Assembly: GCA_050949565.1 (NCBI GenBank)
Contig: JBMNFY010000017.1
Span: forward strand, 1,728,001-1,792,000
Length of the DNA stretch: 64,000 nucleotides
Direction of reading: 5' to 3'
DNA from: Kiritimatiellia bacterium
GTDB lineage: Bacteria > Verrucomicrobiota > Kiritimatiellia > RFP12 > UBA1067
The notes beneath the pieces were generated by a model. It worked only from the letters and a program-made list of their open reading frames with translations. It had not been told where the DNA came from and made no database searches. Shown one piece after another: positions 11,758 to 36,968 of this stretch (its first letter is position 1; every line of letters starts with the position of its first letter). The translations under genes and the position numbers were made by a program.

Positions 11758-13880
11758 CGTGTTTTCCTTTCAAACTTCACAAGGGGCACGATAACTTCTT
11801 CGATGGCTACACCGCCGTGACCTACGATGGCATCTCCCGGGTTCACGAATGCGTCGCGGCCACCGGCCACCAGGGGGAAATAATCTGCGGGCAACCCGAC
11901 CGGCTGCCACTCGTGGGCAAACGGGAAGGCCCCAGCCACCTGAGCGCGGAGTTCCGGCGTTGGATAAACACGAACCCGCTCGCCGCGAGTTTCGGCAATC
12001 ACACCTTCAGACGGGCGGCCTTTGCCGTCGCATTGGATGTTGCCGTGATCGGCCGTCAGCCAGACCTCATAGCCGTAATCCAGCAGTTGGCCGACCATCG
12101 CGGAAAGAAATCCTGCATGGCACCACTGCTTGATCTGGTTGTGCATCCCGGCCGAGCCGAGTTGCATGCCGTGCATGATCTTATCGACCTTGTCCACGAC
12201 CAGCCCCACCACCTTGGTCTTCCCGGGGTGGATTGCGGAGTCGAGGACGCCCGCAGCATCGCCGTCGCCAAGGCCGCGCTGGTAGGCGACATCCAGTCGG
12301 GACAGGCCATGGCCTTCCCAGAACTGTTTCCAGAGTTTCTCTTCGCTGTTGGTCGAGTTGATGGATGACGGGAAATAGAGCGGCGGCTTGCCCGAGAAGA
12401 TCGATTGCCGCGATACCGAGGTCAGCGTCGGAATCCAGGCGAAGGTCGCGGATTCGCGCATGACCAGATTGGCGTCCCGCTTTTGCAGAAGCTGGCGAAT
12501 GGTCACCCACTGGTCCAGGGCCAGGCCATCGACCACGATCAGCGCAGCACGGCTACTGCCAGAGTCCTCGATGTCCCGGGCCAGGCGGCGCGGCACATGG
12601 TGCAGCATGGCCGGATTGGTCGGCGGCAAGTTGATCAGACTGGAGTAGTTATGAACTAACCACTGATAAAACAAATCATTGATCTGATTCTGCACAGCCA
12701 AGAATTTTGAACCACGAATGGACACTAATTCACACGAATTTCCTTTTTCCGATTCGTGTTTATTCGTGTTCATTCGTGGTTCGCCATGAATCAGGGCTGA
12801 TAGCTCGGCCCATTTCAATGCAAAGGCGGTCCAGTCAGAGTAACGCGCTTCAGCAGTGGGCAGTTCCTTCTCGACAAGGCCAAACAAGCGAGAGATCCGT
12901 AGCTCGTCATCGTCCACGCCGGACGTGGCGATGCCGCTTCGAACCCAGGACCCGGCATCCACTTCAATGCCTTTGGCCTCGACTGGGGTGAGTTTTCCTT
13001 CCAGGAACAAGTTGTCGATATAGACCTTGATGTCCTGATGGTCGAACGGCAGGCGGTCAGGGCCGGGATAACGGAAGTGCGTAGTGCGAGGTGCGTAGTG
13101 CGTTTCAGGCTCTCGAACTTCGGTTCTCGCACTTCGCACTCCGCACTTCGCACTCAAAAACACCGGCCAGCGTTCCTGTAAAAAGGCGAAGAATGCCTCA
13201 TCGTCCGGAACGATTTCGGAGAGCGGCCAGGCTTTGAAATCAGGGGTGAGGGACGAGGGGCGAGGGGCGAGTTGAAGGGATTGGATCAGGCGATGGACCA
13301 GGATATCGGGGAGTCTGGTTTTTCCGTAGTGCAGACGGAGCAAGGCACGAAGCAGCTCCACCTCATTGGCGATCAGCTCAGCGGCGATGCCGAACACATG
13401 ACGGAGAATGAAATCCTTGGTGGCGTTGTCGCCCATGCGATCCGGCGGCGACTTGCGCTGGGCTTCAAAAAGCGAATCCAGCAAGCTCCGGTCGAGCTTC
13501 TCAATGACCGGATAGCTCAGGTTGGGAAAGAGATCCCCCAAGTTGAATGAAAGCTTGCGGCCCGCCTGGAGTAGGTCGTAAGGCAAGGATTCCAGCTCCG
13601 CATCCTGCAAGCGGAGGACTACCACCAGATCGGTGTGCTCACCCCGGTCCCATATCGAACGGTACTTTGACTCATAGGCGTATCTGAATTCGACCGGATC
13701 ACTGAACTCGATCAGGTCGAAGCCGCGCCCACGTAATTCAAGCGCCAGTTTCTCCTCGGTCAGCAGACAATCCGGGTCCGCGACCAAGGTCAGCTTGCTG
13801 ACGTTGGGCACAAAGTCGTTCAGGATGGCGTCTCGCCAGGAGGGAGAGTGCGAAGTGCGTTGTGCGGAGTGCGATGTCAT
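11754..13880 (-). CDS. pglZ: BREX-3 PglZ phosphatase-domain protein with in-frame repeat inserts
   Basis: IVVDGLALDQW, PTLTSVSRQ, TADHGN and HGGVAIEEVIVP motifs; ATG 13880 overlaps the upstream TGA. Confidence 0.92.
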   Translation of the reverse strand: MTSHSAQRTSHSPSWRDAILNDFVPNVSKLTLVADPDCLLTEEKLALELRGRGFDLIEFSDPVEFRYAYESKYRSIWDRGEHTDLVVVLRLQDAELESLPYDLLQAGRKLSFNLGDLFPNLSYPVIEKLDRSLLDSLFEAQRKSPPDRMGDNATKDFILRHVFGIAAELIANEVELLRALLRLHYGKTRLPDILVHRLIQSLQLAPRPSSLTPDFKAWPLSEIVPDDEAFFAFLQERWPVFLSAKCGVRSARTEVREPETHYAPRTTHFRYPGPDRLPFDHQDIKVYIDNLFLEGKLTPVEAKGIEVDAGSWVRSGIATSGVDDDELRISRLFGLVEKELPTAEARYSDWTAFALKWAELSALIHGEPRMNTNKHESEKGNSCELVSIRGSKFLAVQNQINDLFYQWLVHNYSSLINLPPTNPAMLHHVPRRLARDIEDSGSSRAALIVVDGLALDQWVTIRQLLQKRDANLVMRESATFAWIPTLTSVSRQSIFSGKPPLYFPSSINSTNSEEKLWKQFWEGHGLSRLDVAYQRGLGDGDAAGVLDSAIHPGKTKVVGLVVDKVDKIMHGMQLGSAGMHNQIKQWCHAGFLSAMVGQLLDYGYEVWLTADHGNIQCDGKGRPSEGVIAETRGERVRVYPTPELRAQVAGAFPFAHEWQPVGLPADYFPLVAGGRDAFVNPGDAIVGHGGVAIEEVIVPLVKFERKTR

Positions 13881-14251
13881 TCTCTTGTACTCCGATCCAG
13901 TGATGTACGAAGTCCGCCTATTGCCCGACTCAGGGTGATGCATTTTTCGCAGATATTGGAGCAATCGGATTCAGAAACATATCCCAGCGATTTTGCGAGC
14001 TGAATCTGGCTTCTTACTTCTGCGCATGATCCTCGGGCAATGGACAAAAACTGTTTAAACTCTTGTCTGCTGTATCGTTCGAAGCCCTCGGCGATGTTAG
14101 ACATCACTGAAACGGATGCACGCTGAATCTGATCCCGAAGCCCCCAATCTTTGGAAAACTCGCCATCCCTCGTTAGACCGTAAATTGTCACGGACAGGTC
14201 ATGGGCCATCTGCCAGATTTGCAAGTCCTCGAATCGTTCGACTTTGCTCAT
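13877..14251 (-). CDS. Four-helix-bundle protein (23S rRNA-IVP / Avd-like family)
   Basis: FEDLQIWQ...LRDQIQRASVSVMSNIAEG...FLSIARGSCAEVRSQ signature. Confidence 0.92.
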   Translation of the reverse strand: MSKVERFEDLQIWQMAHDLSVTIYGLTRDGEFSKDWGLRDQIQRASVSVMSNIAEGFERYSRQEFKQFLSIARGSCAEVRSQIQLAKSLGYVSESDCSNICEKCITLSRAIGGLRTSLDRSTRE

Positions 14252-17200
14252 GACCGCACCTCGCACTCTGCACTTCGCACTCGCAACGCGAGCAGCGGCC
14301 GGATCTCCGGCACGATCTGCCTTGCTGATTGCAGTTCATGCCGCCACTCGGATTCGTCCGCATCGCAACGGGACAACCTGAATTGCCGCACCTCCGGCAG
14401 TCCAACCCGTTCGATGGCCTTGCGGCGCGAGGCAAAGGAAACGATGCCGCGTTCCTCCTCGCGAGCCACAGAGGCGAGGTGCGCCTGCTGCAGGGCGTTG
14501 AACAGCTCCTGTCCGGCCTGTTCGGCAGCAATCTGCAAGCTCTCATGAGCGATGATGGATTCGTCCTGGTCAAGGGTGGCCTGCACCTGGGCTTCCGCTG
14601 TCTGCAGCGCATCCCAGATATGCCGGGCCGTGGGCAGAAACAGTTTGCCTTCCTCGCTCAAAAACACGCTGACATAGCCACGCCGCACCATGGGAATGCG
14701 CAGGAGCTGTGTCTTCTGGTGCGTCCCGGCCTGAAGGCGGATCTCAAAGAGTCCCCAGAGTCCGGAGATGCTGGCTGGCAGCCCGCTCACGCTTACGCAA
14801 GGCAATGGCTGGCCAGCCGCGATCTGCGGCAGGTTCAGGGCAAGCCCACGGACACGGCTGTTCGATAAATCGAAGTGCGAGGTGCGAAGTCCGGAGTGCG
14901 TAAAAGAACCTTTTTCAACGGTTCCATCTGACCAACTCAGTTCCCAGACATTTCCACCTCGCTCCTTGCGCAGTAATTTGGCTCCCGCCCTGCGCACTCC
15001 GCACCCCGCACTCGCATGACTGTTGAGGAACGAAACTGTCATGCGCTCCACCCAATGGGGCAGAGGATGGGAGCGCAGACGCTCAGCCGCCTGCACATCC
15101 GGCTCTTCGGAGATGCCATAGATGGCGGAGGCCTCGCGCACCTGCTGAATTTCATCGCGAAGCCGGGCCACCGTGTGATCGACGGAGCTTTCGATTCCGT
15201 CAGGATTGAGGATGGCAGAGGCGAACACATCCTCGAACAACTCACCGGCCTGGGCCGAGTCGAGCACGTCGCCGGTCTTGTCGATGCCGAACTCGTCGAA
15301 GATCACCGAGAGCTTCTGCTCCAGCACTTCGCGGACGCGGAACTCGACCGAATTCTCAAACACAAAATTAATTGCCCGCACTGTCTTGGGCTGCCCGATA
15401 CGGTCCACACGGCCGATTCGCTGTTCCAGCCGCATCGGGTTCCAGGGGATGTCGTAGTTGATGATGACGTGGGCGAACTGCAGGTTCAGACCCTCACCAC
15501 CCGCGTCGGTGGAAACCAGCACGCGGTGCGATTTGCGGAAGGCATCCTGGGCCTGATTGCGTTCCTCCATATCCATGGAGCCGTTCAGGGTGACCACCGA
15601 GATCCCCCGGGCTTCCAGAAACTCTTTTAGCATCTGCTGGGTCGGCACGAACTCGGTGAAGATCAGCACCTTCAAGTCCGGCTCGTTTTCCTCGGCCTGC
15701 AGCTCGTAGATCCACTCGATCAACGCCTCGGCCTTGGCGTCCGGTCCCGCTTGTTCGCAGCGAACCGCCGCATCGAGCAGGTGTTCAACCTCGGATTTTT
15801 CGTTTTCTATCGCATCAAGCTGTAACGCCAGCTCAAGCTGCTCTTGTCCGTCAAGATCTTCCCAATCCTCGGTTGAAAGGGACAAGGGGTCAGGGACGAG
15901 GGACGAGTCAGAATCTGCCAGTCTCGCCCCTAATCCCTCACCACTCGCCCCTAAAAAAGCAAGTCGTCGTTCCAGCGTGGTGCGGATCGCCCGGGTGCTT
16001 GAGACCACCAGGCGCTGCATCAGGATCATCAGGAAACCGATGTGGCGCTTCTTCTCGCGCAGGGCCTGGTTATAGCCCTCGCGCACATAGTCGGTCACCG
16101 CCTCGTAGAGAAGCTGCTGCAGGTGATGACGGCTCTCCCAGGCCACCGGGGCCATCTGCGTGCGCCGGGGTTTGAAGAGCGGCTTGCCGTCGGCATCGAT
16201 GGCCTTGCGCTTCTCGGTACGGATGACATACGGGGCCACCCGCTCGCGGGAGACGCTGTCCATATCCGGAAAGGCATCGTCATCCAGCAGGTTCATCAGG
16301 CGATGGAAGGCATCGGTCTTCCCCTGGTGGGGAGTCGCCGAAAGAAGCAGCACATAGGGCGCGGCTTCCGCCAGCCCTTTGCCGAGTTTGTAGCGGGCGA
16401 CCTGATCGGTGCTGCCACCCAGGCGGTGCGCTTCGTCCACCACCACCAGGTCCCAACCGGCGGTAATCAGATCCTCGAACCGGCTGCGGTTGTATTCGGC
16501 AACGCGCTCGGCGGTCCAGCCGCGCCGCTTGTCCATGGGTTTGACCGAATCGAGCGAAACAATCACTTGGTCAAAAAGCGACCAAGGATTGGTTCGCAAG
16601 TGCGGAGTATGGAGTGCGGAGTACGTTTTTTCTGAATCCGCACCTCGCACTTCGCACATCGCACCGGCAACGCGATTCAGCGTTGCCATGTCGTCGCCCA
16701 GCACGAGCTGGAACTGCTCGTTGAAGTGGGTCTGCATTTCCGCCACCCACTGGGTAGCGATGCCTTTGGGAGAGACGACCAGGATTCGCCGAACCAGCCC
16801 GCGCAGCTTGAGCTCGCGCATGACCAGACCGGCCTCGATGGTCTTGCCGAGACCCACCTCGTCGGCCAGCAGATAGCGCACACGGTCTCCGGAGATGGCC
16901 CGGGACAAGGCGTGGATCTGGTGCGGCAGCGGGATGACGTTGGACTCCATGGGAGCCAGCAATACATGGCCGTCGGTGGCGCTGGTGGAGCCTTCGAGCA
17001 CCTCGGCTACCTTGGCTGCGGCGGCCACATAGGCAATGTGATCAGTGGTTAGTGACGAGGGGCGAGAGGCGAGTGGAATCAGACCGGAAGCCGGGATTCG
17101 GACAACAGAATCAGAATTCGGCAACCAGACACGGCACACCGTCTGCCCCCACAAGGTCTGTTCTTCGATGACCTTGCAGGCGCTGTTATGAACGGTCGAA

Positions 17201-17295
17201 TAGCACCACGAATGAACACCAATGGACACCAATGATTTTCTGTCCGTGCCTGATTCGTGTTTATTAGTGTCCATTCGTGGTTCAATCCTCGCCAT
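14248..17295 (-). CDS. brxHII: BREX-3 BrxHII SNF2-like helicase with in-frame repeat inserts
   Basis: LADEVGLGKT, VDEAH, LSATP, STDAGGEGLNLQ and EQRIGRVDRIG motifs. Start approximate. Confidence 0.9.
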   Translation of the reverse strand: MARIEPRMDTNKHESGTDRKSLVSIGVHSWCYSTVHNSACKVIEEQTLWGQTVCRVWLPNSDSVVRIPASGLIPLASRPSSLTTDHIAYVAAAAKVAEVLEGSTSATDGHVLLAPMESNVIPLPHQIHALSRAISGDRVRYLLADEVGLGKTIEAGLVMRELKLRGLVRRILVVSPKGIATQWVAEMQTHFNEQFQLVLGDDMATLNRVAGAMCEVRGADSEKTYSALHTPHLRTNPWSLFDQVIVSLDSVKPMDKRRGWTAERVAEYNRSRFEDLITAGWDLVVVDEAHRLGGSTDQVARYKLGKGLAEAAPYVLLLSATPHQGKTDAFHRLMNLLDDDAFPDMDSVSRERVAPYVIRTEKRKAIDADGKPLFKPRRTQMAPVAWESRHHLQQLLYEAVTDYVREGYNQALREKKRHIGFLMILMQRLVVSSTRAIRTTLERRLAFLGASGEGLGARLADSDSSLVPDPLSLSTEDWEDLDGQEQLELALQLDAIENEKSEVEHLLDAAVRCEQAGPDAKAEALIEWIYELQAEENEPDLKVLIFTEFVPTQQMLKEFLEARGISVVTLNGSMDMEERNQAQDAFRKSHRVLVSTDAGGEGLNLQFAHVIINYDIPWNPMRLEQRIGRVDRIGQPKTVRAINFVFENSVEFRVREVLEQKLSVIFDEFGIDKTGDVLDSAQAGELFEDVFASAILNPDGIESSVDHTVARLRDEIQQVREASAIYGISEEPDVQAAERLRSHPLPHWVERMTVSFLNSHASAGCGVRRAGAKLLRKERGGNVWELSWSDGTVEKGSFTHSGLRTSHFDLSNSRVRGLALNLPQIAAGQPLPCVSVSGLPASISGLWGLFEIRLQAGTHQKTQLLRIPMVRRGYVSVFLSEEGKLFLPTARHIWDALQTAEAQVQATLDQDESIIAHESLQIAAEQAGQELFNALQQAHLASVAREEERGIVSFASRRKAIERVGLPEVRQFRLSRCDADESEWRHELQSARQIVPEIRPLLALRVRSAECEVRS

Positions 17296-18538
17296 GGGGT
17301 GGTTGCGCGGCAAAAATCGTCAGCATCAGCTCAGAATCATCAAGGAGCCTGTACACCGGCTTTCTACCCGACAGCTTCTCGCTTTCGGTGATGATGATCG
17401 GTACCCCCTCACCGCGCTTATCCATGATGAAATTCCGTTGACTGCCGATGGCATCTACATTCATAGGGCAACGAGCCAGCAATGAACTGATCAATTCGTT
17501 CCGTGCCGATTGGCGTTCTGAAATGCTATCAATGGTCATGGTGTTGGGGATCGCGCCGGGCGAGAAGATTTCCAGCCGATCAGAAAAGAGGTGCAGGCGA
17601 ATCTTGGAGCCGTAAATGGAGTAATCCCGATGGGCTACAGCGTTGACCACAGCCTCGAACACCGCATTCATGGAAAACTGGGGTGTTTCGATCCGATTGG
17701 GTGCTTTGATGGCAAAGACCCGCATGTTTCTCTCCACAAACTTGCAGGCGTCCCGAACCTGAACATCAAGCGGGCCAGTGATATCCTTGGCGTCCAGTTG
17801 ATAGGCGGCGTTGCGCTCGGTGCCCCGGTAGCAAACGGCCTGAATAAAAGCGCTGGAGATAAAAGCCTCCGGTGCGTCCGAGGCCATCAGAATACCGCTG
17901 ACTGTCGCCCGCATGGCGCCGTCTTCGTCCTTGGCAACCAGCTTCATCTTTTCGAGAAATTCCTGATCAGCCTTGGAGGAGATAACCGTCCGGAATTGGT
18001 TCCATAGCTTGGGATTCAGATCATTGACAGATGTGCCCGGCACTGTCTGTTCATCGAAGCGAATGAGTCGCGCCTGACTGCGTTGCTGGAATAACCGCGC
18101 CAAAACATCCGGTTTCATCTCGCGCTTGGAACTACCGAGGCGGCGGAAATAGCCATTAGGGCTTTTATGGACAAACAGACTGCGGGGCACGTCGATTCGC
18201 AGGATAGTTTTCTCATCACCCTGTTGATCGGGCACAAGGAGTTTGCGTATGACGCAATCCAAGGGAGGATCAATCGAGTCGTTGCAAATGGAACGTAGCC
18301 AGCCTTCAAGTATGTCAAGTTTATCCGACGGTATCCCTCGAATCTCTTTGGTCTTGTCATCAACCCCCAGAACAATGGTGCCGGAAGCCGTATTCGCCAT
18401 GGCCGCCAGTTCGTCTGCCATATCGTCCTTGTGGGGACCGGTGACTTTGTTACCGCTGAATTCCACTGCCTTGAGTTCAAGAACTGAGTCCTCGCCCAAG
18501 GCGATTTGTTTAAGCAGGTCGGAAATGTTTTCGTACAT
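17282..18538 (-). CDS. AlbA_2 (Schlafen-like) plus HATPase_c_4 domain protein
   Basis: GEDSVLELK, AMANTASGTIVLGVDD and EAVVNAVAHRDY motifs; AAGGAG RBS. Confidence 0.85.
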   Translation of the reverse strand: MYENISDLLKQIALGEDSVLELKAVEFSGNKVTGPHKDDMADELAAMANTASGTIVLGVDDKTKEIRGIPSDKLDILEGWLRSICNDSIDPPLDCVIRKLLVPDQQGDEKTILRIDVPRSLFVHKSPNGYFRRLGSSKREMKPDVLARLFQQRSQARLIRFDEQTVPGTSVNDLNPKLWNQFRTVISSKADQEFLEKMKLVAKDEDGAMRATVSGILMASDAPEAFISSAFIQAVCYRGTERNAAYQLDAKDITGPLDVQVRDACKFVERNMRVFAIKAPNRIETPQFSMNAVFEAVVNAVAHRDYSIYGSKIRLHLFSDRLEIFSPGAIPNTMTIDSISERQSARNELISSLLARCPMNVDAIGSQRNFIMDKRGEGVPIIITESEKLSGRKPVYRLLDDSELMLTIFAAQPPHGED

Positions 18539-18644
18539 TATGGGCACTCCTTTTCTAAGAAGAACCACGAATGAACACCAATAAACACTAATGATCTTTT
18601 GCATGGTCTTGATTCGTGTGTATTTGTGTCCATTCGTGGTTCCA

Positions 18645-19028
18645 TTAAAGCACCAACCTTTCCCATTCGAGTTTGGCACGTTTGAAGTTTAGAATAACGC
18701 CAACCTTCAGTCCGGTGATCTTTAAGTAATTGAGGATTTGACCGCGTTCCACATCGGTGATTCTTTCGATGGTCTTGGTATCAACCACAATCTGATCAAA
18801 AACAATCAAGTCAGGGATATACTCACCGACCTTGATCGACTTATAAATGACATCGAATCGAGGCTGCTGATGAAACGGGATATTCCGCAGCCCGAACTCC
18901 ACAACGAGCGCATTTTCATAAGGCTTTTCCAGCAGGCCATGTCCAAGCGTGTTCAACACCTCCATCGCACAGCCAACAATCTGAAAAACCTCCTCCTTCA
19001 AAAACAATTCGTGTTTATTCGTGTCCAT
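18645..19028 (-). CDS. GxxExxY protein
   Basis: LGHGLLEKPYENAL motif, PD-(D/E)xK-like PDLIVFDQIVVDTK and QILNYLK. Confidence 0.92.
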   Translation of the reverse strand: MDTNKHELFLKEEVFQIVGCAMEVLNTLGHGLLEKPYENALVVEFGLRNIPFHQQPRFDVIYKSIKVGEYIPDLIVFDQIVVDTKTIERITDVERGQILNYLKITGLKVGVILNFKRAKLEWERLVL

Positions 19029-19035
19029 TAGTGGT

Positions 19036-21880
19036 TCACTCCCCTCCCATTCTTGTTACCGCCTGGTCGTACCACATGAGCAGTTTGGGATCTTCTTCCA
19101 GGACGTTGTTGGGGATCTTGTCGGCCACGGCGATGATGACTGCGTAGTCGCGCTCCTGCCAGGCTTTCTTGAATCCGGCGCGGACAGCTTCCAGGCGGAA
19201 GACCTTGAGCTTTTTCTTGACCTCTTTGTATTCCTCGAACTCCTTGAGCAGCGCCTTCTCGCGCAGCTTCTCCAGGTCGCCTGCCTTGTTGGGGTCGGGC
19301 ACGTACCAGCGGTCGCGGGCCTTAGCGACCAAGGTCGGATCATCCTTGGGAAGATTGCGCAGCTCTTTCCAGTTGGTGGAAAGGTAGGCGTGGATCTGCT
19401 CGGGCACCGGGCCTTTGCCGTCGAATTTGATAAAATTTTGCTCTAGCAGCTCATCCAATTCGAGGAGCTTTTCTGTCTTTAGCCACCCACCAATTTCTTG
19501 CATAAATTGAGGTTTGAGTTCACCTGATGTTTGAGGCTTCTTAAGCAGTTGCTGCCTCATCCATTGGATGGCGGTATTTTCGTCAGTGATAAATAACTGT
19601 AGCTGTAGAACCTCACGTACAGTCATTCTCTTTCTATCGTATTCTGCAATTTGATCTGGTAGAAAATACATGCCATCACGCTCGGAGAAGCGCTGATTAA
19701 GGCCTTGATAGAACTCCGCTGCAGACAAAGGAACGGCCACCCCCCTTTGGACGTGAAATGCGACCATCCGGTCAAACAACAGAAAGTTTTGGCGCTCCGA
19801 AATGATTTCAACTTTCCCATCTTTGGAAACAAAAACAGGAAGCTGGTTGAGATGCGTTCTGATGAAATCCCAAACTACATCTTCGGTTCCCGCTCCAATC
19901 TCAAATTTCTTTTCTAGTCCATCTGTCGGTTTATATGCGGATATAACAAGGTCTTGATCAATGGCCCCAGCTCTATTTACTGCATTGAAAGACCGCTGCT
20001 GTTTATTGAGCACCCGAACATCTGCCACAACAAGCCCAGAAGACTCTATTGCCTGCTGTATCGCGCTCCAAACTGCATTCTGGCTGTTATGGAATTCGAC
20101 GGTGATCCATCTCCCCGGCTTTAGAACACGAGAGTAAGTTCTAAAGGCTCCTAACATCATATTGGAATAGAATGCTAAATCCTTCTTGTGGACATAGTTC
20201 AGAACGCAATCGCTATCGACAAAAGTCCTCGTCTTAAGCCACGCCTCCACAAACATGTTCAGCTCTGCATATTGCAATGATTCTCCAAAAGGCGGATCTG
20301 TAAATATGTAGTCAATTGAACTATCTGGGTAATTCCTGAGATCGACAACACTTTGGGTGGATACGGTCGCAGCCCGGTGAGTTTCTACTGAAAGAGACTT
20401 CAGCTTTTTTATCTTCCTCTTGAGAACATCAAATACATTTCGCTCAAGGTGAAGAGAGGGCGTAAAAAGAGTGCCCGAAACGCCACCGCCTCCGCCGAAA
20501 TAGCCTTGTTTTCTCGAAATATAGTTATTAATCGCGGTTAAGCAGAATCTGAAAAAGGCCGTTCTTCTGTGTGAAGAGAGCGTCTTCCCCCACAAGTATC
20601 CATAAACAAATAGAGATCGCTTTGTATACATATGAGCGACATGCGATAGCCCAGAACCATTTATGAGTTTGTTGGTCTGCCGACCTGGGAAAAATTCATC
20701 TGAAGGAATGCTTGGCCAGTGACGTCCTTCAAACCTTTGATCAAATTCTTTTCGTTCCTCGGGCGTAACCGAGAACGTCTTTCTTGCCGTTCCCTGCTTT
20801 ATTGTCTGCTCAACTAGAGCAAACTTGGGAGTGCTTACCATTTTTCCAAGCACGGGATCGAACTCAGATGTAAATGGCCTTTCCAATTTTACCGCGCCAG
20901 AAGATTTCGACGCTGCTTTTCCTACTATCGTTCCGCAATCAGGGCATGGGAAAGATCCTTCCATCTTTCCATCTTTTAATGCGGCTTCCCAGAAAATGAA
21001 CTCATGCGAACAGTTAGGGCAAAGGAAAACATCTGACCAGACGGCACTAAGCACGGTACCTTTTTGCTGACCCTGATAGAGCCATTTGAGTTCTTTTTCG
21101 GCACTCTCAATCACCTTTAATGCTTCCATGGCAAAAGAAGAGAGGGAGGAAAGGTCTGAGTAATTACTCGAAATAAACGTCGCAGCAGGTGAGAGGTCAT
21201 TTAAGAAGGCTTTCCTCTCCCCTATGGTAGAGAACGGTACCCATACCTTTTTCCCTTCGCTATCAATCTCTTCCTGCATAATCGAGCCATCGGGCTTGAT
21301 TTGATAACCGAGGGACGATATTTCGTTTTTGTCGCCACACATCTGCGCCGCCACGCCGGTCATGCCTGTTCCACAGAAGCCGTCAAACACAATATCCCCC
21401 GGTTGGGTGTAGTGGAGGATGTAACGCATGATGGCCTTGTGCGGCACCTTGGTGTGATAGGAGTGCGCGTTGTAAATCGGGTCGTTCTTCCCCTCGCTGA
21501 CATCGGCGGCAAAAGGCTCTCTATGATAGGGGCGAGGGGTGAGGGGCGAGGGGTGAGCGCCTTCTTTCTCGTCCCTCGTCCCTAATCCCTCGTCCCTGAT
21601 TTTTTCCGCTTCCCATAAGCGGATAAAATCGGCAATCCACGGGTTCGGGCAGGCGGTGTAGTACGGCGGATCGCTCAGCTTGAGGATGTCTTCATCTCTC
21701 ACCGATGGGAAAGCCTTCGATCTTGCGGAACTCCGGGTCCTGCAGCTTCTTGCGCAGCTCCTCGGTAAAGTGGGCGCGGCGGGCCTCGTCGTTCTCGAAG
21801 GTCATGCCGAGGCAAGTCACCGGGCCGGAGGGCTTCTGCGGCTCTTCAAGCAGCGAGTCGAACAAACTGGTTTCTTTCAT
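19036..21880 (-). CDS. pglXI: BREX-3 PglXI DNA methyltransferase, split by a 1-nt frameshift near 21700
   Basis: SDPPYYTACPNP, YHTKVPH, DGFCGTGMTG and FTDPPFG motifs. The N-terminal piece (MKETSLF...EGFPIG) lies in ORF 21692-21922 and continues in another frame. Confidence 0.85.
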
Positions 21881-22237
21881 CTTCACAATCCTTTTGAACC
21901 ACGAATGGACACGAATCCACACGAATAATTTTTAACCACGGAATACACGGAAAGCACGGAAGGGGCACTTGCTATACACGCTTTTATGCGCGGGCGCATA
22001 GATGGGCGCATATTTTCACGCGCCGCGCGGATTTTACGCGCGGGCTCATACCATTTTATGCTTGCAACGCCCGTTTTATGCTCGGTGAGCATATTTTCGC
22101 CCGACGAGCATAAATATGAGCGAATACGCGCGCCGCGCGCAAAATACGAGCGATCTACACACGATCCTATACACGCATGCGTAGAAGTTATGAGCCATTT
22201 ATGAGCTGGCTCATAACTTATGAGCGGGGCGCATAAA

Positions 22238-23908
22238 TTATGGGTTAAAGTCATAATGAGACCCTCTTCGTTCACCATGTTTGAAAATTTTTCCTTCGTT
22301 CGCCAGTCGAGTCAGCAGTTTTGCGGCTTGGTCTTTTGTCAGACGGCACAGGTCCATGACATCCGCTCGTTTTATGCTGCCGTGTTTGTCGATATAGCTA
22401 AGCACCATCTGCTCCTGCTGGATGGGTGCAAACCCGGCCTGGCGGATGTACTCTGATTTTTTTCCTGCTTTACGGTACAGGGCGGCACTGAGGGTATAGG
22501 TCCGTCCCCTGCCGGTGCCGTGGGGTTCCAGAAATCCGGTTTCCACGAGTTTTTCCAGTGTCGCCCGAACACTGGCCTCCGGTTTTTGGACCGATGGGGC
22601 GAGGTCACCGGTGGTCAAGCGGCGCTCCTCACGCAGGCGGGAGAGGATGATCAGGGAGTCAATGGGCATGTTACCCAGCTTGTCCTCTTGTTCGACGACC
22701 ATCTTGAGAAAATCGAGATCGGCGGCAGCATTGACCATCTGCATGGAAACCGTAAACTCATTGGACATGGAGTAATCCGGTGCCGGTCGACCGTAGCGGA
22801 GCATGCCTTCATAGATGCGGTCAATCCCGCGCCCTGTACGCTCGGCCAGGCCGATCCGCTTGATCACGTCAGCAAGTAGCGGATTACGGGAACGGGGGTC
22901 TGCAACGAGCAGGTTATCCAGGGTAACGCCTTCCACAAATCCGCCAGGATTGCTGATCGAAAGGCCATCGCCTGTGATCTTGACGTGCACGGCTCCCAAA
23001 CGGCTGAAGTCGCGGTGTACCAGGGCGTTAACCAATGCTTCGCGGAAAGCGCGTCGATCATAGTTGGGAACCGGCACCCGGAAGAGGCCGACCTGTATCT
23101 CTTCTTCCTCGACTCGTGCCTTGAAGAGAAGCTCAACTTCCTCAAAGGTTTCCAGCAGTGGTTTGCGGAAGAACTCATTCACCCTGACGTCTGTAGCTTG
23201 CAGGACCTGGAAGGCGACCTCGTAGGCGGGAAGATGTTGTCGCAACAGACTTTCGGTTCCCAGCAACAGCAATCCGGCCACGGTTGGCCGCCTGATGCCG
23301 TTCCCTTCCCGACAGAGCCCCAGAGCGCCATCCAGTTCGTCATCGGCCAGCGCCAGCAGGGATTGTTCGCCGCCGTATTTCTTAATGGCGTTACGAATGC
23401 GCAGCCGTTGCAGTGGGTCGAGTTGGCTTGCTTCCACCTCCTCAAGCATCATGGCAGAGGGATCGACAAGCCCCATTGACGACTGGCGCTGGATAAACTC
23501 ATGGGGATAGAAAGGAACCGCTTCCGGTGTACCGTCGAGCTTGAGGCGCCTTCGGACCAGAAGGCCATCGGAGGTTGAAACCAATTGCCGGGATTTGGGC
23601 ACGGAGATACGGGCGATGGATTTGCCCTGCAACTCACACCGCTCGATGCGAACAGATATGGCGGGATTGGTTTTGTTGGCGATCAGCGAAGGAATGCCCG
23701 ACACATTCAGATGGTTGGCATGCAAGCCGGTAACCGAGCCATCATCCTCCACACCAAGCAACAGGTTGCCGCCATCGGTATTGGCCAAAGAAACGACCAC
23801 GGCCACCAGGTCGCGATCAGGCAGGCACTTCAGGTCGCTCTTGAATTCCAGCGACAAGCTTTCGCCCTGCTGGATCAGCTTATCAATTTCGTGTCCATTC
23901 GTGTCCAT
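22238..23908 (-). CDS. AlbA_2 + HATPase_c_4 + wHTH protein
   Basis: GESLSLEFKS, SLANTDGG, REALVNALVHRDF and GRGIDRI motifs with C-terminal HTHs; start MDTNGHE lies inside a repeat arm. Confidence 0.85.
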   Translation of the reverse strand: MDTNGHEIDKLIQQGESLSLEFKSDLKCLPDRDLVAVVVSLANTDGGNLLLGVEDDGSVTGLHANHLNVSGIPSLIANKTNPAISVRIERCELQGKSIARISVPKSRQLVSTSDGLLVRRRLKLDGTPEAVPFYPHEFIQRQSSMGLVDPSAMMLEEVEASQLDPLQRLRIRNAIKKYGGEQSLLALADDELDGALGLCREGNGIRRPTVAGLLLLGTESLLRQHLPAYEVAFQVLQATDVRVNEFFRKPLLETFEEVELLFKARVEEEEIQVGLFRVPVPNYDRRAFREALVNALVHRDFSRLGAVHVKITGDGLSISNPGGFVEGVTLDNLLVADPRSRNPLLADVIKRIGLAERTGRGIDRIYEGMLRYGRPAPDYSMSNEFTVSMQMVNAAADLDFLKMVVEQEDKLGNMPIDSLIILSRLREERRLTTGDLAPSVQKPEASVRATLEKLVETGFLEPHGTGRGRTYTLSAALYRKAGKKSEYIRQAGFAPIQQEQMVLSYIDKHGSIKRADVMDLCRLTKDQAAKLLTRLANEGKIFKHGERRGSHYDFNP

Positions 23909-23915
23909 TCGTGGT

Positions 23916-26900
23916 TCAGCCTTCCATGACGATCCGCACCTTGGCCGGGTCCTTGCCCTTGGTGAGCTGATCGATGTACTCCTCAAAGCGTTTCTTCATC
24001 TCTGCCGGGGTGGCCGGGCCGTCGGTGACCTGCAGGGCCTGTTGCAGCTCCTGCGCCTTGACGGTGACCTTGACCAGGCCGGAGAGCACTTCCTTCAAGG
24101 CGTGGACAAAGTTGCTGTCCAGCGGCACCGGCAGTTCCTTCGACCTGATGAAGGCTTCCAGCGGCTCGCGGTCATCGATCTTCAGCAGATCCATGTTGGC
24201 CTGGGTGATCGGGTCCTCCAGGTTGCTGAGCAACGCCTTGGTCCAGTTTTCCAGCATCCGGTCGAGTTCGTCGTCCAGTGCGTTAAGAATTGCGGCGGCG
24301 TTGCTCAAGTGCGTGGTGCGTGGTGCGTGGTGCGAGGTTTCCGCACTTCGCACTCCGTACTCCGCACTCATTTCGGTCGCAGGCCGAAATTGGCAATGCG
24401 GGCAGATGGGCGAGGCATCGAGGTTTTGTTCGGTCAGGGCGAAGCAGCTCTTCAGTCCGGCCAGGCGGTTCTGGTAATCGGTGAGCTGCTGCCGGGGCAT
24501 CAGGTCGATACCAGCCAGCTTGAGCAGGGTTTGCAGGCGCTGGTCGTTGAGCAGTCCTGCCTTGCGCTTGTCGTCGTTCACGCCCAGCCGGGCGCGCGCG
24601 TGGAGGGAGATGTATTGGTTGATGTAATCGCGTTTGAGCTTTTTCAGCTCTTCGCCGACTTCGGACGATACTCGCGCGAGATCTGAGGACTGAGTGCTGA
24701 GGACTGAGGTTAGAGCGTCCAGAACTTCCTTGCGAGTTTTCTTGACCTGCTCAACCCAGACATCCAATCCCTGTGCTCCAAACTCGCCCCTCGCCCCTGA
24801 TCCCTCGCCCCTGCTTGCAGAGGCTTCCGCCGTAGCAAGCCAAGCTGCTGTCGGGCTGTGGTCCATGATGAACTCGCGCAGGGCGTCCAGCTCATCCAGG
24901 GCCTTCACGGCCTTTTCGTGGGCCAGCACTTCGGGAGCGCTGTAGCGGAAGTTTTTCAGTTTACCCGGAGTAGAGTACGCTTGCAGGCTTTCAAAGAAAG
25001 CCTTCGCGTCCTCCAGTGCGTGGTGCGTTGTGCGCAGTGCGCCATCTTCACCCCGCACCTCGCACCCCGCACTTCGCACTAAATCTAGACCCCAGAAGGA
25101 GAGCCCTTCGCGCAGGGTCTGCTGGGTCATGACGATGCGTTTGACGATCTTGCCCACCGCCTGTTGCAGGTTCTGCACAGGCTCGTCCTTGCCCTGGGTG
25201 ACGAGCTGGGCCATGCCCGGCGTCATGCCGAGCAGTTCGAACAGCGCTTTGAGCGCGGGCAGGTTCCATTCCTTGGGCTGCTCCAGGTGCTTGAAGCGGA
25301 CCAGCTCGTCCATGCCGGTCGCGGCAAGCTGCTGCAGCCCGGTGGCGTCAAACTTTCTTGCCCGGAATGGCGAGCACGATGTCGCCGGAATAGACCAGCG
25401 CAGCCACCAGACCGCTCACCCATTCGGGTTCCAGACGCGAACCGCCGGGGTTCATGTATTCCAGCCCGTGGTCGTCCTGGATGATCTCGCTGCGGTTGAC
25501 TACCTGGCCGTGCCCCTTGGCCTTGACGGTATCGAGAATGAACTTGGTGTACTTCGACTTGTAGGGGTCGATCTTCTCGCCGTCGAGCAGCTCCAGGGCG
25601 TCCAGCACGGCGGTGGCTTGTTTTGTCAGGGGCGAGGGACGAGAGGCGAGAGATGAGTTGGCCAGATTGGCCATTCCTCGTAAGGCATCTTGGGCCGCTT
25701 GCGCTCTGTTGGCGGCAGTGATCAGGACCGAGAAGAACGGGTAGTCCGGGGCCTGGTTCTCGAAGTTCGGTGCCAGGCAGACACCGGCGATGGTGTTCAC
25801 CAAGTCGCGGAAGTTGATAGTCTCGTGAGGCGACAGGCCCGACAGGTCGCGGATGGATTTGCCCTTGGCCCATTCGGTCATGGACTTGGCACGGCCCTGA
25901 TAGGTGACCTCGAAGGCATCGCTCATGTGCTTCTGCAGCCACTGGACCAGCTTCTTCAGGAAGCCGTTGGCCTTCGATTCATAGGTGGCCTTGGCATGGC
26001 CCGATGAGGTGGCTGCAAGATCCAGTGCGGCCGCATAGCTTTTCAGAGCTGTCTGGAATTCTTCTGATGGAGAGCCACTAATGGACGCGAATGAACACGC
26101 ATCATTTTTTATTTGTGTCAATCCGTGTTTATCTGTGGTTCTCAAGTTCAGACGGAAGAAAACTTCATCGGAACTTTTTTCATCTTTGAACCTTGGGCAA
26201 TCAAATGGCGGAAGAAAATAGAGGTAAAAGTCCCGCTGCGGCACGGCGGTGGAACGCTCGTTCGGTGCCCCGAAAAAGAGGTAGCCGGAGCGGGCTGCCT
26301 TGTGCTCCTGCCAGACCAGTTCGTGCTGCCAGATTTTGTAGCCGGTCACATAGGTGGCGTCCTGGCATTCCATGACCCGCTTGAGCGCCTCGTAATAGAA
26401 GCGGTCGAGCTGAGCCTGGCCCAGGCTGTCGGCCCGCGTCCTTACTTTTTCGTCGTAATCGATATCTTTCGAGACATCCAGGTAGAATTGGCCACTGAGT
26501 CGCCCGCGATCATCAATCTCTGTTGCGGAAATAAATTGCCCGCTGACGGCTTGGCTGATCAGGCGGATAGCCGTTTCAACTTCACCACGTAAGTCTTCTG
26601 CGCTGTCATCGCCACCGAGCTCGGCAATCAATGGATCAAACAGGCACAACTGGTCACGAAGCGCTTCAGCGGTTAGTCCATTTGGCGAGGATAAACTTCC
26701 CACGGTAAGCCGATGAACGCTAAGCCCACGAACAATTCGCAAGGCAAATTTCTTGTTTTTCGCCTTTGGATAGTTGGAAATCACTAAATTTTGCAACGTG
26801 TTGCTGCAATCAATGACCTGCTTTATATCAGGTAATGTTCGATAGGCGGCATTGGTTGAGAGTACATCCCAGTAGCTGTCGAAGGCGATCAGGCCGGGTT

Positions 26901-27906
26901 CGTCCTGCGGCACGTCCTTGCCCAAAATGCCTTTCATGCCCATGGACAAGGTCTTGAGCACCTCGCGCTTTTCCACCACGGTGACCCGCTCGAAGGTGTC
27001 GATGTAATCGGGATGCACCGGGAAGAGCCGGACAAACTCGTCCATGCGCTCATTGAGCCCGCCGTAGTATTTGGCAAAAGGCATCAGGTAGTCGCGGATC
27101 TTGGCCTGTTGCTCGGTGGTCTTCTTGAGCAGGCGCTCGGCCACGACGAATTTCACGTCGCTGCGGGCGATAAGGATCTGCTCGAAGCGGTCCTTCACCC
27201 GGCGGATGCTGTCGGCGACAAAGGCGAAGCGCGGGCTGTCGAAAATGGCTTCCTGGACACCGGCCATGAAGCGGAAGCGAAGGTCCTTGCAGACCTCGCC
27301 GACCTCGCGGAGGAAGTTGAGGTCGAGGATCAGCTCCTGGTCCTTGCGGGTGCGCAGGTAGTCGAGCAGCTCATCGACCACCAGCAAGAGACCATGCTCG
27401 GGGAAGACCTCGCCGAACTTGGCCATCATGTCTTCGAAGGCCCGCTTGTGGCTGGTAATGGTCCCGGCTTCGGGGAACACATACTCCACGCCGAGTTTTT
27501 CGAGGTGCTCTTCCAGTTCGGCCACCAGGATGTCGCGCAGGGACATGGTGGTGGCTCCGATCTCGGTACGGATGACCTTGAACCGACCTGCGATCTGAGA
27601 GGCTGCATCGCGGACACCGGCGTGGTTCAGCCCTTCCAGCAGGGAGGCATCTGCGGCAATACAGGAAACCACCGACATCAAATGCGATTTACCGGTGCCG
27701 TAGTTACCGACGACCAGCAGCCCCTTGTTATCGACCGGGTGGTCGAACTGCATCTGAGGAATGACAAGCTGCGTGAGTCGTTCGGCCATTTCATCTGAAA
27801 TGACATAGGTGTTCACCAGGTGCTGCGCGGCGTTCGATTTGTCCGCGTCACGCAACTGAACGACCGACTCAATCGGGTCGAATTGGATAAGGTCTCCGTA
27901 TTTCAT
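23916..27906 (-). CDS. brxC: BREX-3 BrxC/PglY (DUF6079-like) ATPase, split by a 1-nt frameshift near 25352
   Basis: Walker [10 protein letters not shown] and VVDELLDYL. ORFs 25348-27906 and 23916-25313 are contiguous once one base is removed at ...PGKK/FDATG... Confidence 0.85.
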
Positions 27907-28304
27907 GGCAACTCCTTCGTCGTTGCAGGGGCGAGGGACGAGGGTTTAGAGGCGAGTTTGGCCATCAACCCGTTGGTCATTTTGTTGATTTCTACTTGTA
28001 AACTGAGAATAAGGCCGAGCTGGTCAGTTGAGAGATACCCGAGTCGATGGGCAATCAGTAATTGGGTCTCAACCTCTGCCAGTGAACCCTTTGAGATTGA
28101 CAAGAACCGATGGAATTCTTTTGTTGAGTTTCTTGCATGGCCTTCAGCAATGTTTGATGGAATCGCAACAACGGCTCGTCGAAGCTGATTCGTCAATCCA
28201 TATAACTCTTCCGTAGGAAAAGTTCTGGTTGCTTGATAAACCATTTCAACCAAATCCAACGCTTTCTGCCAAACAATCAAATCCTTGTAACTCTGCACGC
28301 TCAT
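27903..28304 (-). CDS. Four-helix-bundle protein (23S rRNA-IVP / Avd-like family), second copy
   Basis: [11 protein letters not shown]...[21 protein letters not shown]...[10 protein letters not shown] signature. Confidence 0.93.
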
Positions 28305-28795
28305 ATCTCGTCCCTCACCCCTAACTCCTCGCCTCTCATATCAACAATCAGCGCATCGACCGAGTCATAGCTGCGGTACTCGGGATGGCCGGTTTCGGCG
28401 TACAAAAGCCTCCCGGAATTCATGATTCCGTTCCACGAAGCCACCACGGCCCGATTTCTCGAAATGGACTGCAGCAGGCGCAAGGGGTCCTGCTGGAGAT
28501 CCTTGTCGAAGAGGATCTCGAGATTATCCAGCACCACCGGTGCTTGAGCCTGGTCCGCGATCTGATCGAGGATGCCCGGCAACCGAAGCGACCGCTGCTT
28601 TGCCGTCAGCTCAAGCAGTTCGCCTGAAAGCGCCAGATTGACGTTGACGACAGATGAGCCGAATTCCTCGGCAATATCCCGAAGAACGCCGGTCTTGCCG
28701 GAACCGGTCTCACCCACCAGCAACACCAGACGGTGATACAAGCCTTCGGCTGCCTGGAGGGATCGTTTTATCTTGTCGTGAATCGGCTCGGCCAT
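28301..28795 (-). CDS. brxF: BREX-3 BrxF P-loop protein
   Basis: LVGETGSGKT, LDNLEILFD...DPLRLL and YAETGHPEY motifs; first gene of the BREX-3 order. Confidence 0.88.
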   Translation of the reverse strand: MAEPIHDKIKRSLQAAEGLYHRLVLLVGETGSGKTGVLRDIAEEFGSSVVNVNLALSGELLELTAKQRSLRLPGILDQIADQAQAPVVLDNLEILFDKDLQQDPLRLLQSISRNRAVVASWNGIMNSGRLLYAETGHPEYRSYDSVDALIVDMRGEELGVRDEI

Positions 28796-33003: not shown

Positions 33004-33056
33004 CCCGCGCGGTTTTGTTTTAGCCTAAAAAGAGCAGTTGAATCTTCAACTCTCAT

Positions 33057-33128
33057 TGGTTTCAAGGTTTCTGGTTTCAAGGTTTCATCCAAATCGGGAT
33101 CGGGATCGCTATCGGGATCGGGATCGAT
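33057..33128. repeat. Short tandem repeats GGTTTCA/GGTTTCT (7-mer) and ATCGGG (6-mer); duplicated at 36792-36863
   Basis: Seen directly between the convergent dsbD and xylB genes. Confidence 0.75.
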
Positions 33129-33233
33129 TGTTTAACCGCCGCCGGATAGAAGGCCGGTGCATAGGGCACCGGCAGTGCTCGTAGTACCGGCAGTAACGGG
33201 AAACCCTCCGCAATTCCCAACCCCAACTGCCTA

Positions 33234-36738: not shown

Positions 36739-36968
36739 CCCGCGCGGTTTTGTTTTAGCCTAAAAAGAGCAGTTGAATCTTCAACTCTCATTGGTTTCAA
36801 GGTTTCTGGTTTCAAGGTTTCATCCAAATCGGGATCGGGATCGCTATCGGGATCGGGATCGATTGTTTAACCGCCGCCGGATAGAAGGCCGGTGCATAGG
36901 GCACCGGCAGTGCTCGTAGTACCGGCAGTAACGGGAAACCCTCCGCAATTCCCAACCCCAACTGCCTA

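Follow-up and report, generated by a model that had tools for sequence, protein, structure and literature searches.

Arms of tandem repeat units bound very small, putatively mobile elements in a BREX type 3 operon

Several described systems combine small genes or palindromes with inverted repeats, and each resembles in some respect the sequences reported here. Integron attC sites carry boxes with the consensus RYYYAAC (R'') and GTTRRRY (R'). Rickettsia palindromic elements, which Ogata et al. reportedly described in 2000, are said to be palindromic repeats that lie in frame within protein genes that stay open. The repetitive extragenic palindromes (REPs), with their doublets (REPINs) and the REP-associated tyrosine transposases (RAYTs), comprise a single small gene between inverted repeat copies, scattered gene-less pairs, and one repeat family per gene lineage, as outlined in excerpts of two reports (PMC3116915, PMC3337134). 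Likewise, an excerpted account of the intervening sequences (IVS) of 23S rRNA describes the four-helix-bundle family as the protein that these sequences encode (PMC11270868). Here we examine repeats, designated family A, that occupy gene junctions of a bacteriophage exclusion (BREX) type 3 operon in a Kiritimatiellia bacterium, where they enclose a gene for a GxxExxY protein (PF13366) and other small genes. The operon resides in a 64-kb stretch of DNA (hereafter, the window; GenBank contig JBMNFY010000017.1, or C17:1728001-1792000 of the genome labeled G000) within a 4.66-Mb assembly of 60.4% G+C. The finding is wider than the sequence-only reading of this DNA that it follows up: the repeats belong to a class of tiny elements with tandem-unit arms, whose cargo includes GxxExxY, four-helix-bundle, and AlbA-HTH genes (HTH, helix-turn-helix).

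The operon that hosts these elements spans window positions 11754 to 28795 and, like all repeats and operon genes discussed below, is read from the minus strand. Its genes encode, in order, an HTH protein, BrxF, a first four-helix-bundle protein, BrxC (DUF6079), a protein with AlbA_2, HATPase_c_4, and HTH domains (AlbA-HTH), the PglX methylase, GxxExxY, a second AlbA_2 protein (AlbA2), the SNF2 helicase BrxHII, a second four-helix-bundle protein, and PglZ. Profile matches to NF033453 (BrxF, 200 bits against a cut-off of 50), DUF6079, N6_N4_Mtase, SNF2/Helicase_C, and PglZ within this single operon place it in BREX type 3.

The family A arm, GAACCACGAATGGACACGAATAAACACGAAT, consists of three 10-nt units, each formed by a conserved 8-bp core, ACACGAAT, and a free 2-nt purine spacer, and the outer end of the arm reads GAACC. 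Two facing arms across a loop of 12-19 nt make a full hairpin of 68-79 nt. The pattern CCACGAATGRACACGAAT, with three or fewer mismatches allowed, has 17 matches in the window where 0.08 are expected, a number reached by none of 100 shuffles, and a repeat search of the window also groups the copies as one family (D1, D3, D4, I1-I11). Across the 4.66-Mb genome, with two or fewer mismatches, there are 19 matches, 13 of which lie in this locus of about 14 kb, and the remaining six represent three solo arms.

All five junctions in the series brxC, AlbA-HTH, pglX, GxxExxY, AlbA2, brxHII carry family A. The sequence-only reading had asserted this for every junction from brxC to brxHII, had placed arms at 23916-23887, 21961-21934, 21926-21897, and 19035-19007 and hairpins at 18641-18563 and 17282-17205, and had proposed that arms supply start codons; each of these points holds, the copy at 21961-21934 being degenerate. 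The first left arm (23887-23917, present also in the related locus L136) contributes the GA of the brxC TGA (23918-23916) and the ATG at 23908-23906. Because no other canonical start lies between the arm and the conserved LIQQGES..LEFK segment, this ATG is the start of the AlbA-HTH gene (22238-23908, Pfam domains). On the other side of that gene, a right arm (21897-21926) and the degenerate second right arm (21934-21961) precede the Shine-Dalgarno sequence and start of pglX. The next left arm (19007-19035) finishes the TGA of pglX and includes the ATG of GxxExxY (19028-19026), and a full hairpin (18563-18641; left arm, 19-nt loop, right arm) separates GxxExxY from AlbA2 (17282-18538; AlbA_2 and HATPase_c_4 by Pfam).

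Neighboring genes thus take ATG, GTG, or TTG starts and TGA stops from the arms, and the stops of brxC, pglX, and AlbA2 all draw their GA from the outer GAACC. The last junction hairpin (17205-17282) supplies both the AlbA2 TGA and a start for brxHII, whose native start has been lost; the first in-frame starts, TTG 17232 and GTG 17229, are both in its right arm. BrxHII of the related loci L163, L171, and L137 begins M..WQYSTVHNSACK, and relative to these the 78-nt hairpin stands in place of the spacer and approximately the first eight codons. Two further copies, additional to those of the sequence-only reading, lie in frame within genes: a full hairpin in pglZ (12712-12779) and a degenerate hairpin in brxC (26075-26140).

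Comparison with related loci reveals where the units begin and end. Eighty related BREX type 3 loci from metagenomes were mapped, and the brxC|pglX junction is on the contig in 64. This junction is empty in 33 loci, holds a four-helix-bundle gene in 16, an AlbA gene in 11, both in two, a GxxExxY gene in one (with CGCAGAT arms), and something else in one. L136 (contig G067:C483) has a 96%-identical AlbA-HTH gene between the same family A arms. Relative to empty junctions, everything between the brxC stop and the pglX Shine-Dalgarno sequence has been replaced, so that the breakpoints are the outer arm ends. Moreover, L165 and L136 each carry an arm-GxxExxY-arm unit (79% identical) at a different junction, brxHII|pglZ, where brxHII ends at a TAA in the arm. 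That junction is empty in eight other loci aligned with L165, and the two genes abut in 23 of 25 loci measured. Some junctions counted as empty have repeats of their own, since many of those that measure 92-95 nt at brxC|pglX (L147, L149, L152-L154, and others) contain a short hairpin built of GAGTGAC units, similar to the arms that four-helix-bundle elements have in sister loci. In L189, L202, and L204-L208 the junction is at its true minimum, 48-49 nt.

In metatranscriptomes of biogas and digester communities (four libraries), the assembled contigs show joints at nearly every element (at least 12), and parts without coverage carry no meaning. Because the joints come from assembled contigs, they show alleles with or without elements and do not separate RNA processing from DNA variants. 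One contig has the joint 17196>19036, by which the block of GxxExxY, AlbA2, and both hairpins is missing exactly between the outer arm ends. The degenerate brxC hairpin is bridged by 26061>26219, and the pglZ hairpin is replaced in a contig of run X3, where aligned pieces stop at 12649 and resume at 12786. The proposal of the sequence-only reading that arms bound insertion or deletion units is therefore borne out by the joint 17196>19036, by L165 and L136 against their empty counterparts, and by the AlbA-HTH unit of L136. Breakpoints away from the arms, which that reading had named as contrary evidence, were not what the related loci displayed; they fall at arm ends.

The GxxExxY gene (18645-19028) encodes a protein that scores far above curated cut-offs (132.2 bits against 35 for TIGR04256 and 123.4 bits against 22 for PF13366) and matches no other family. 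Nucleases of the RecB-like branch of the PD-(D/E)xK superfamily carry catalytic E, D, and (D/E)xK residues along with a QxxxY motif. Eight residues are invariant across 36 GxxExxY sequences (G29, G31, E34, Y37, D73, K85, Q97, and Y101). The structure model is confident (predicted local distance difference test score, 95.7), and its nearest folds by Foldseek in the PDB are lambda exonuclease, AddAB, Cas4, and Hjc, all of which are weak matches (E-values of 1.1e-3 or above) generic to PD-(D/E)xK proteins; a PDB sequence search returned no relative. From E34, D73, K85, Q97, Y101, and the modeled fold, we predict that GxxExxY is a minimal RecB-like PD-(D/E)xK nuclease, as the sequence-only reading had suspected in calling it PD-(D/E)xK-like.

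Arms and GxxExxY genes occur together well beyond this operon. All six GxxExxY genes of the window's genome lie between inverted arms of tandem 9-10-nt units, which fall into five unit families. Among 30 GxxExxY loci, one from each of 30 further genomes of the phylum, the flanking inverted repeat beats all shifted controls in 29, and a flank repeat score of at least 30 is reached by 24 loci versus 1 of 118 controls. The outer ends of these arms mostly read (T)AACC[A/G]C. Of 301 sampled genomes of the phylum, 165 have GxxExxY, and a cross-tabulation by hand of the 84 genomes with family A repeats and the 44 with a clade-A GxxExxY places the repeats in 36 of these 44 but in only 48 of the 257 others. 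Mapped onto a tree of 43 GxxExxY proteins, arm-unit labels require 21 changes, whereas 300 shuffles gave 32.4 on average and never fewer than 28. The window's copy belongs to a CACGAAT clade (100% by the Shimodaira-Hasegawa-like approximate likelihood ratio test) along with copies from Terriglobia (85% identical), Bacteroidota, Verrucomicrobiota, and Kiritimatiellota. Since kin share labels, this result shows that gene and arms travel as a unit and is no proof of recognition.

Family A also exists in gene-less form across phyla. An exact 18-mer of the arm is present in more than 130 stretches among the matches listed, in hosts that include Verrucomicrobiota, Planctomycetota, Acidobacteriota, Chloroflexota, Bacteroidota, proteobacteria, and others, and most of these copies are hairpins beside ordinary genes. 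Five other genomes hold 24-172 copies each (one or no mismatch), versus none for a reversed control pattern, and one of the five, a Terriglobia genome, contains an arm-bounded repeat of about 196 bp, of the kind known as a miniature inverted-repeat transposable element (MITE), in at least 14 copies. Arms approximately 400-420 nt apart enclose a GxxExxY gene in L018, L044, L078, L245, and L248, and arms with this spacing occur without a GxxExxY frame in L246 and L247. Copies also cluster locally, as the BREX contig with the GxxExxY gene holds 13 of 19 family A matches in G000 and five of six in G067. The AlbA-HTH lineage is 80-93% identical across Nitrosomonas, Nitrosococcus, Acidithiobacillus, and Dethiosulfovibrio, among others. 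An M[DN]TNxHE start is present in 28 of its best 120 homologs and a look-alike in 74, which indicates that the arm-encoded N-terminus is old and widespread in that lineage.

Elsewhere in G000, an arm and a short spacer form tandem arrays beside other GxxExxY genes (C17:564900-565150, C15:17100-18000, and C7:32700-33600); one example of such amplification comprises five 47-nt repeats. A single intergenic stretch (C17:319300-319470) has four arm families head to tail, of the CGCAGAT, CACGAAT, CACAGAG, and CGCAGGT types.

The operon contains two sister repeat families, both confined to the locus: family B (GGGGCGAGGGACGAGGG-like, 7-nt units) and family C (GAGTGCGGAGT-like). Each flanks one four-helix-bundle gene, and hairpin or single-arm copies of both are read in frame inside brxC, pglX, brxHII, and pglZ. 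Four-helix-bundle gene 1 (27903-28304; PF05635, TIGR02436), between brxF and brxC, has ATGA overlaps at both ends. Its upstream family B arm, GAGGAGTTAGGGGTGAGGGACGAG (28307-28330), is read as a C-terminal extension of BrxF, and the inverted partner, CTCGCCTCTAAACCCTCGTCCCTCGCCCCT (27927-27956), lies at the 3' end of the gene. Four-helix-bundle gene 2 (13877-14251; PF05635, 126.5 bits), at brxHII|pglZ, likewise has ATGA overlaps at both ends. The family C left arm, GCGAGTGCGAAGTGCAGAGTGCGAGGTGCGG (14254-14284), encodes the last brxHII codons and the stop; the right arm (13846-13876), together with the ATG at 13880-13878 in the ATGA overlap, gives pglZ its first 14 codons (MTSHSAQRTSHSPS; ATG plus 13). 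Both layouts recur in L288. Of 30 PF05635 loci fetched, 27 were evaluable, and tandem-unit flanks above controls are inverted in 18 and direct in four. The four-helix-bundle protein is present in 98 of 151 sampled genomes.

In-frame copies of family B comprise hairpins in pglX (21527-21597) and brxHII (15876-15954), a solo arm in the N-terminal region of brxHII (17044-17075) that is similar to the right arm of the four-helix-bundle element in L136, a solo arm in brxC (25628-25650), and an arm in pglZ (13243-13272). Those of family C are hairpins in brxC at 25016-25079 and 24315-24368 (the latter from the repeat search, I12 and I13), a hairpin in brxHII (16599-16665), arms with a long loop in brxHII (14875-15013), and a hairpin in pglZ (13077-13155). 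An Rfam search returned no family at gathering score, only sub-threshold matches to microRNA models on family B hairpins. The core BREX frames are all open across these insertions, and the two frame breaks of the operon (brxC near 25340 and pglX near 21700) are outside the mapped repeats.

The community contigs also have joints at these copies. The two four-helix-bundle genes are bridged by 27907>28344 (gene 1) and 13838>14296 (gene 2). Family B joints are 17038>17117 and 25617>25718 at the solo arms of brxHII and brxC, and 21 nt of the pglZ arm are left out in contigs of runs X2 and X3. Joints for family C are 24968>25090 (with 127 other letters) and 24307>24393 in brxC, 16584/16601>16688 and 14862>15038 in brxHII, and 13070>13164 in pglZ. 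BrxC has hot spots of its own. Among 77 full-length C-terminal parts of this protein, 60 have the baseline length and 17 are longer; hairpins stand in place of about 33 nt of baseline sequence at three fixed positions, all in frame. These hairpins belong to at least six or seven unit families, and the neighboring protein sequence co-varies with them. The brxC hairpins of the window given above lie at hot spots 1 (25016-25079) and 3 (24315-24368).

Given these observations, we lean toward the explanation that the arms are terminal inverted repeats (TIRs) of very small selfish elements that insert without breaking operons, with GxxExxY as their likely enzyme. The role of the arms as boundaries of mobile or indel units is well supported, and we infer that GxxExxY is the enzyme acting on them. 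A complete element would consist of an arm, the GxxExxY gene, and an arm, in all about 430-470 bp, and the 68-79-nt hairpins would be its gene-less, MITE-like derivatives. The well-conserved AlbA_2-HTH gene would be a second cargo of family A arms, and families B and C would be sister elements with four-helix-bundle cargo in the same operon. Such elements would take the place of gene junctions or lie in frame within protein loops that tolerate them, and their arms, open in the frames used, would provide a stop for the upstream gene and an ATG, GTG, or TTG for the downstream gene, often as an ATGA overlap. GxxExxY may bind the phased cores from one side of the helix and cut at the element ends. 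The element could then spread, mostly to nearby DNA, either by transposition or by cut-and-repair in the form of homing or gene conversion between homologous loci.

A farther-reaching proposal is that GxxExxY proteins serve as the enzymes of a minimal mobile element of a new class, with the four-helix-bundle "23S-IVS" proteins as the cargo of sister elements. We regard this as possible but doubtful. Under this proposal, a RecB-like nuclease of about 125 aa would read phased 8-bp cores in the tandem-unit terminal repeats and move the 430-bp element and its hairpin derivatives into operon junctions and protein loops. Host genes would remain unbroken because stop and start codons come with the repeats.

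Three known types of element share parts of this arrangement. Like MITEs and other TIR transposons, the elements have terminal inverted repeats of about 30 bp built from repeated binding-site-like units, short internally deleted copies, and presence/absence polymorphism at the repeat ends. They differ in having no visible target-site duplication and no known transposase (DDE or other), with a single gene of only about 125 aa; by association, GxxExxY is a candidate for the transposase-like partner that acts on the repeats. Homing endonuclease genes similarly place a small nuclease gene at one site of homologous loci, with flanks that co-vary with its presence, as the mosaic flanks in BrxC do. 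In contrast, the present element lies between genes or within its own repeat ends, involves no intron or intein, and spreads in gene-less copies too. Rickettsia palindromic elements are described as in-frame palindromic insertions in genes that stay open, but their sequences and hosts are different, and family A adds junction copies that give starts and stops as well as full-length copies that carry a gene. In the partial literature surveyed on GxxExxY (PDDEXK_3, PF13366), on four-helix-bundle or IVS proteins, and on BREX inverted repeats, no published description of these elements was found. The portions covered contained nothing on repeats in the GxxExxY/PF13366 papers, nothing on flanking tandem-unit repeats in operons in the four-helix-bundle/IVS papers, and nothing relevant on BREX with inverted repeats and accessory genes.

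Several observations weigh against the explanation of selfish elements served by GxxExxY. First, no target-site duplication is visible at L165 relative to the eight empty sites, and none was seen in the Terriglobia MITE copies, whose shared longer composite flanks prevent their ends from being set. The insertions resemble replacements of 13-40 nt and not clean insertions. Second, the link to the nuclease has exceptions. Ten of 31 genomes with at least 10 copies, including one with 133, have no clade-A GxxExxY (E-value of 1e-35 or below), L248 has family A arms around a GxxExxY that is distant on the tree, and the clustering of labels on the tree is also expected from plain co-inheritance. The four-helix-bundle elements share the same build with no nuclease at all, and the arms of four in 27 are direct instead of inverted. 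Third, different repeat families occupy the very same BrxC codon position in different loci, which independent random transposition explains poorly. These hot spots, the least explained of our observations, fit recombinational exchange or homing between homologous loci better.

The idea that AlbA genes are cargo meets its own difficulties. AlbA2 homologs (66%) stand before brxHII without arms in L163 and L171, and the AlbA genes at brxC|pglX of other loci, 23-28% identical, are mostly armless. In addition, L134 (contig G057:C92), from a genome of the same taxonomic order and with a PglX C-terminus that is 94% identical, carries other cargo after pglX without arms. That cargo is low in G+C and comprises a 248-aa open reading frame (ORF) and a protein-kinase-like ORF.

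One alternative, which we consider unlikely, is that the hairpins are mobilized in trans by a host enzyme such as an IS200/IS605-type or RAYT-like Y1 transposase, while GxxExxY, four-helix-bundle, and AlbA genes are passengers or addiction genes. The likeness to REP/REPIN-RAYT systems, as far as the excerpted descriptions extend, includes a gene (here GxxExxY) between inverted repeats, gene-less doublets dispersed in other genomes, and repeat families specific to a gene lineage; in G000 itself, however, the copies are clustered. A reading of family A as a genome-wide REP population was rejected for this genome because 13 of 19 copies reside in one locus. Seven Y1_Tnp-like matches occur in the genome, one of them beside four-helix-bundle genes (contig C20), and the shared architecture of nuclease-less elements, the many-copy genomes without clade-A GxxExxY, and the lack of target duplication, as in peel-and-paste transposition, would all suit this alternative. 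Nevertheless, a profile scan found no Y1 gene in the window's BREX locus, the arms are strongly linked to GxxExxY (36/44 versus 48/257), and arm type follows the GxxExxY tree. A RAYT is a Y1 HUH transposase, whereas the element gene here is a predicted PD-(D/E)xK nuclease. The arms, as three tandem 10-nt units, are unlike REP heads, and copies lie inside ORFs and at operon junctions. Furthermore, REPIN-RAYT systems are described, in the excerpts cited above, as mostly vertical, but family A crosses phyla with at least 80% protein identity.

Another alternative, improbable in our estimation, is that the arms act in RNA in the manner of 23S rRNA IVS stems, through RNase III cutting, termination, or stabilization, and thereby insulate or release the mRNA of the small gene. 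The comparison has substance. In the excerpted IVS account (PMC11270868), a PF05635 gene within inverted repeats is inserted in a transcribed essential unit without destroying it, and PF05635 ORFs enclosed by inverted repeats are what the window has at 27903-28304 and 13877-14251. The locus is also present in RNA libraries, and a 1890-nt contig spans 17167-19056. The hairpins are very stable (-21 to -66 kcal/mol) and fold far better than shuffles on both strands, with z-scores from -3.4 to -11.4; predicted stems pair continuously from the outer end, with only the 2-nt unit spacers open. In contrast to an IVS, the host is a protein operon and not a 23S rRNA helix, the arms are tandem-unit repeats, and the hairpin copies are translated.

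The pattern of conservation, which under this alternative would mirror RNA structure, also speaks against a function in RNA. Among 23 two-armed hairpins, unit cores are conserved at 0.88, while spacer identity between arms is 0.315 versus 0.409 when shuffled, and there is thus no covariation at the variable positions. No consistent strand bias of stability was found, as the nine intragenic hairpins divide into four better in sense and five better in antisense, and two junction hairpins are more stable on the sense strand. Across phyla the 8-bp core keeps every letter, a degree of conservation that a stem would not require, and the direct-repeat flanks of four of 27 four-helix-bundle genes cannot pair. 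Contigs, for their part, cannot show RNA ends. A conserved 8-bp word every 10 bp looks like a protein-binding array, and judged from the sequences, the pattern of spacers and cores fits protein-binding sites better than a selected stem.

The sequence-only reading had likened the locus to a recombinase-free cassette array with exchangeable cargo. The portion of that claim concerning arms as bounds of indel units stands; the integron-like array is not supported, given that attC sites differ, in-frame ORF copies exist, AlbA2 homologs in L163 and L171 and most AlbA genes at brxC|pglX of other loci are armless, and in other genomes the repeats are dispersed beside housekeeping genes. A related alternative, that arms are site-specific recombination sites of an integron-like cassette system in which a recombinase encoded elsewhere swaps whole genes (AlbA, GxxExxY, and toxin-antitoxin pairs, for example) between hairpins, also appears improbable. 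Like attC sites and integrase-less attC clusters, the repeats are imperfect inverted repeats of 60-130 nt between successive small genes, their outer AAC...GTT recalls the R''/R' boxes, family A arms are common to two unrelated cargo types, and an integron integrase is present in the genome. Arrays exist in some genomes, as on a Nitrosomonas contig with the order RelBE, hairpin, DUF4160-DUF2442, hairpins, DUF1640, hairpins, GxxExxY, hairpin, and five tandem hairpin units. This array of small cargo genes between hairpins is why an exchange system is retained as a rival.

Its difficulties are nonetheless several. An attC identity for the arms was rejected on comparison with the genome's own integron. 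The arm flanks (GCTGAAC...GTTCAAA, GGTGAAC...GTTCTTC, and similar) miss the R''/R' boxes RYYYAAC/GTTRRRY, and the arms have neither an unpaired central spacer nor extrahelical bases. The true attC sites of this genome read TCCCAAC...GTTAGGG and ...GTTGGGA, unlike the arms, and the sole IntI above cut-off (C17:749973-751415; 358.6 bits against 265) is about 1 Mb from the window and thus not adjacent to the array. Moreover, hairpins lie in frame inside ORFs, and the cargo of the Nitrosomonas array is not co-oriented. The chromosomal integron itself (G000 C17:746700-751415) comprises three or more cassettes that end in classical attC sites; a Dam-like methylase and a probable restriction enzyme are encoded in one of them. 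The Nitrosomonas array (L014-L016, positions 1-3410 of the joined stretch) contains, as named from translations, a RelBE-like pair, a DUF4160/DUF2442-like pair, one small ORF, and GxxExxY, all separated by family A hairpins, and its five tandem hairpin units are 173 nt each. Its left arms read CACTAAT/CGCTAAT and its right arms CACGAAT/CGCGAAT, a systematic mismatch in every unit.

Finally, it is very unlikely that the arms are immobile operator sites through which the AlbA-HTH regulators of the locus control BREX expression: phased 10-bp repeats are typical of protein-binding arrays and two AlbA genes, one with HTH domains, lie between arms, but the family abounds beside housekeeping genes in other phyla and inside ORFs, arms flank GxxExxY far from any AlbA gene, and AlbA is armless in most related BREX type 3 loci.

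The operon has other features of interest. Its G+C content is 55.6%, compared with 60.7-62.4% in the flanks, and the window's pglX was found in none of the 36 same-family genomes searched; by composition and distribution, the locus looks acquired. The middle of pglX (19440-21300) is 45% G+C and just 47-57% identical to most relatives, while the N- and C-terminal parts are 93-100% identical, and the same middle is found in L174 (95%) and in L204/L205 (87%). It looks like a swapped specificity module. The one-base frame break of pglX is at 21690-21705, with the first 62 codons (21880-21692) out of frame with the 888-aa remainder, and PglX of relatives reads through at this position. BrxC is split into two frames at 25313-25360. 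At 25357, contigs of all four RNA libraries have one base fewer than the window, and the split may be an assembly error or specific to the strain. The stretch of about 275 noncoding nucleotides after AlbA-HTH (21962-22237) is dense in short palindromes of the type TTTTATGCGCGGGCGCATA / TATGAGCnnGCTCATA, which may be operators of the HTH protein or part of the pglX promoter region; similar words are present in L136 and L187.

Beyond the operon, a second defense-like cluster lies beside BREX at 6840-10940 and encodes a pPIWI-associated-type nuclease, a HerA-like ATPase (DUF87), and a SIR2 protein. A segmental duplication (31348-34517 and 35083-38492) has produced two DsbD-like genes with equal Pfam scores, each preceded by a flavodoxin-domain gene and followed by an FGGY kinase gene, one of which is truncated. 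A DDE transposase gene is at 40089-41240.

GxxExxY (PF13366) and the four-helix-bundle 23S-IVS protein (PF05635) are both very common, their function is not known, and almost as a rule they are found between tandem-unit arms. As parts of tiny selfish elements, both families gain a testable role. The elements explain the odd N-termini, such as MDTNKHE, of many database proteins, the recurrence of such small genes inside defense operons, and the origin of in-frame variable inserts in BrxC, PglX, BrxHII, and PglZ. If GxxExxY does act on the arms, it would be a new and very small mobility enzyme, which might serve as a compact sequence-guided DNA tool. Under the farther-reaching proposal above, the elements would also be a main source of modular shuffling and of hypervariable in-frame inserts in BREX and restriction loci.

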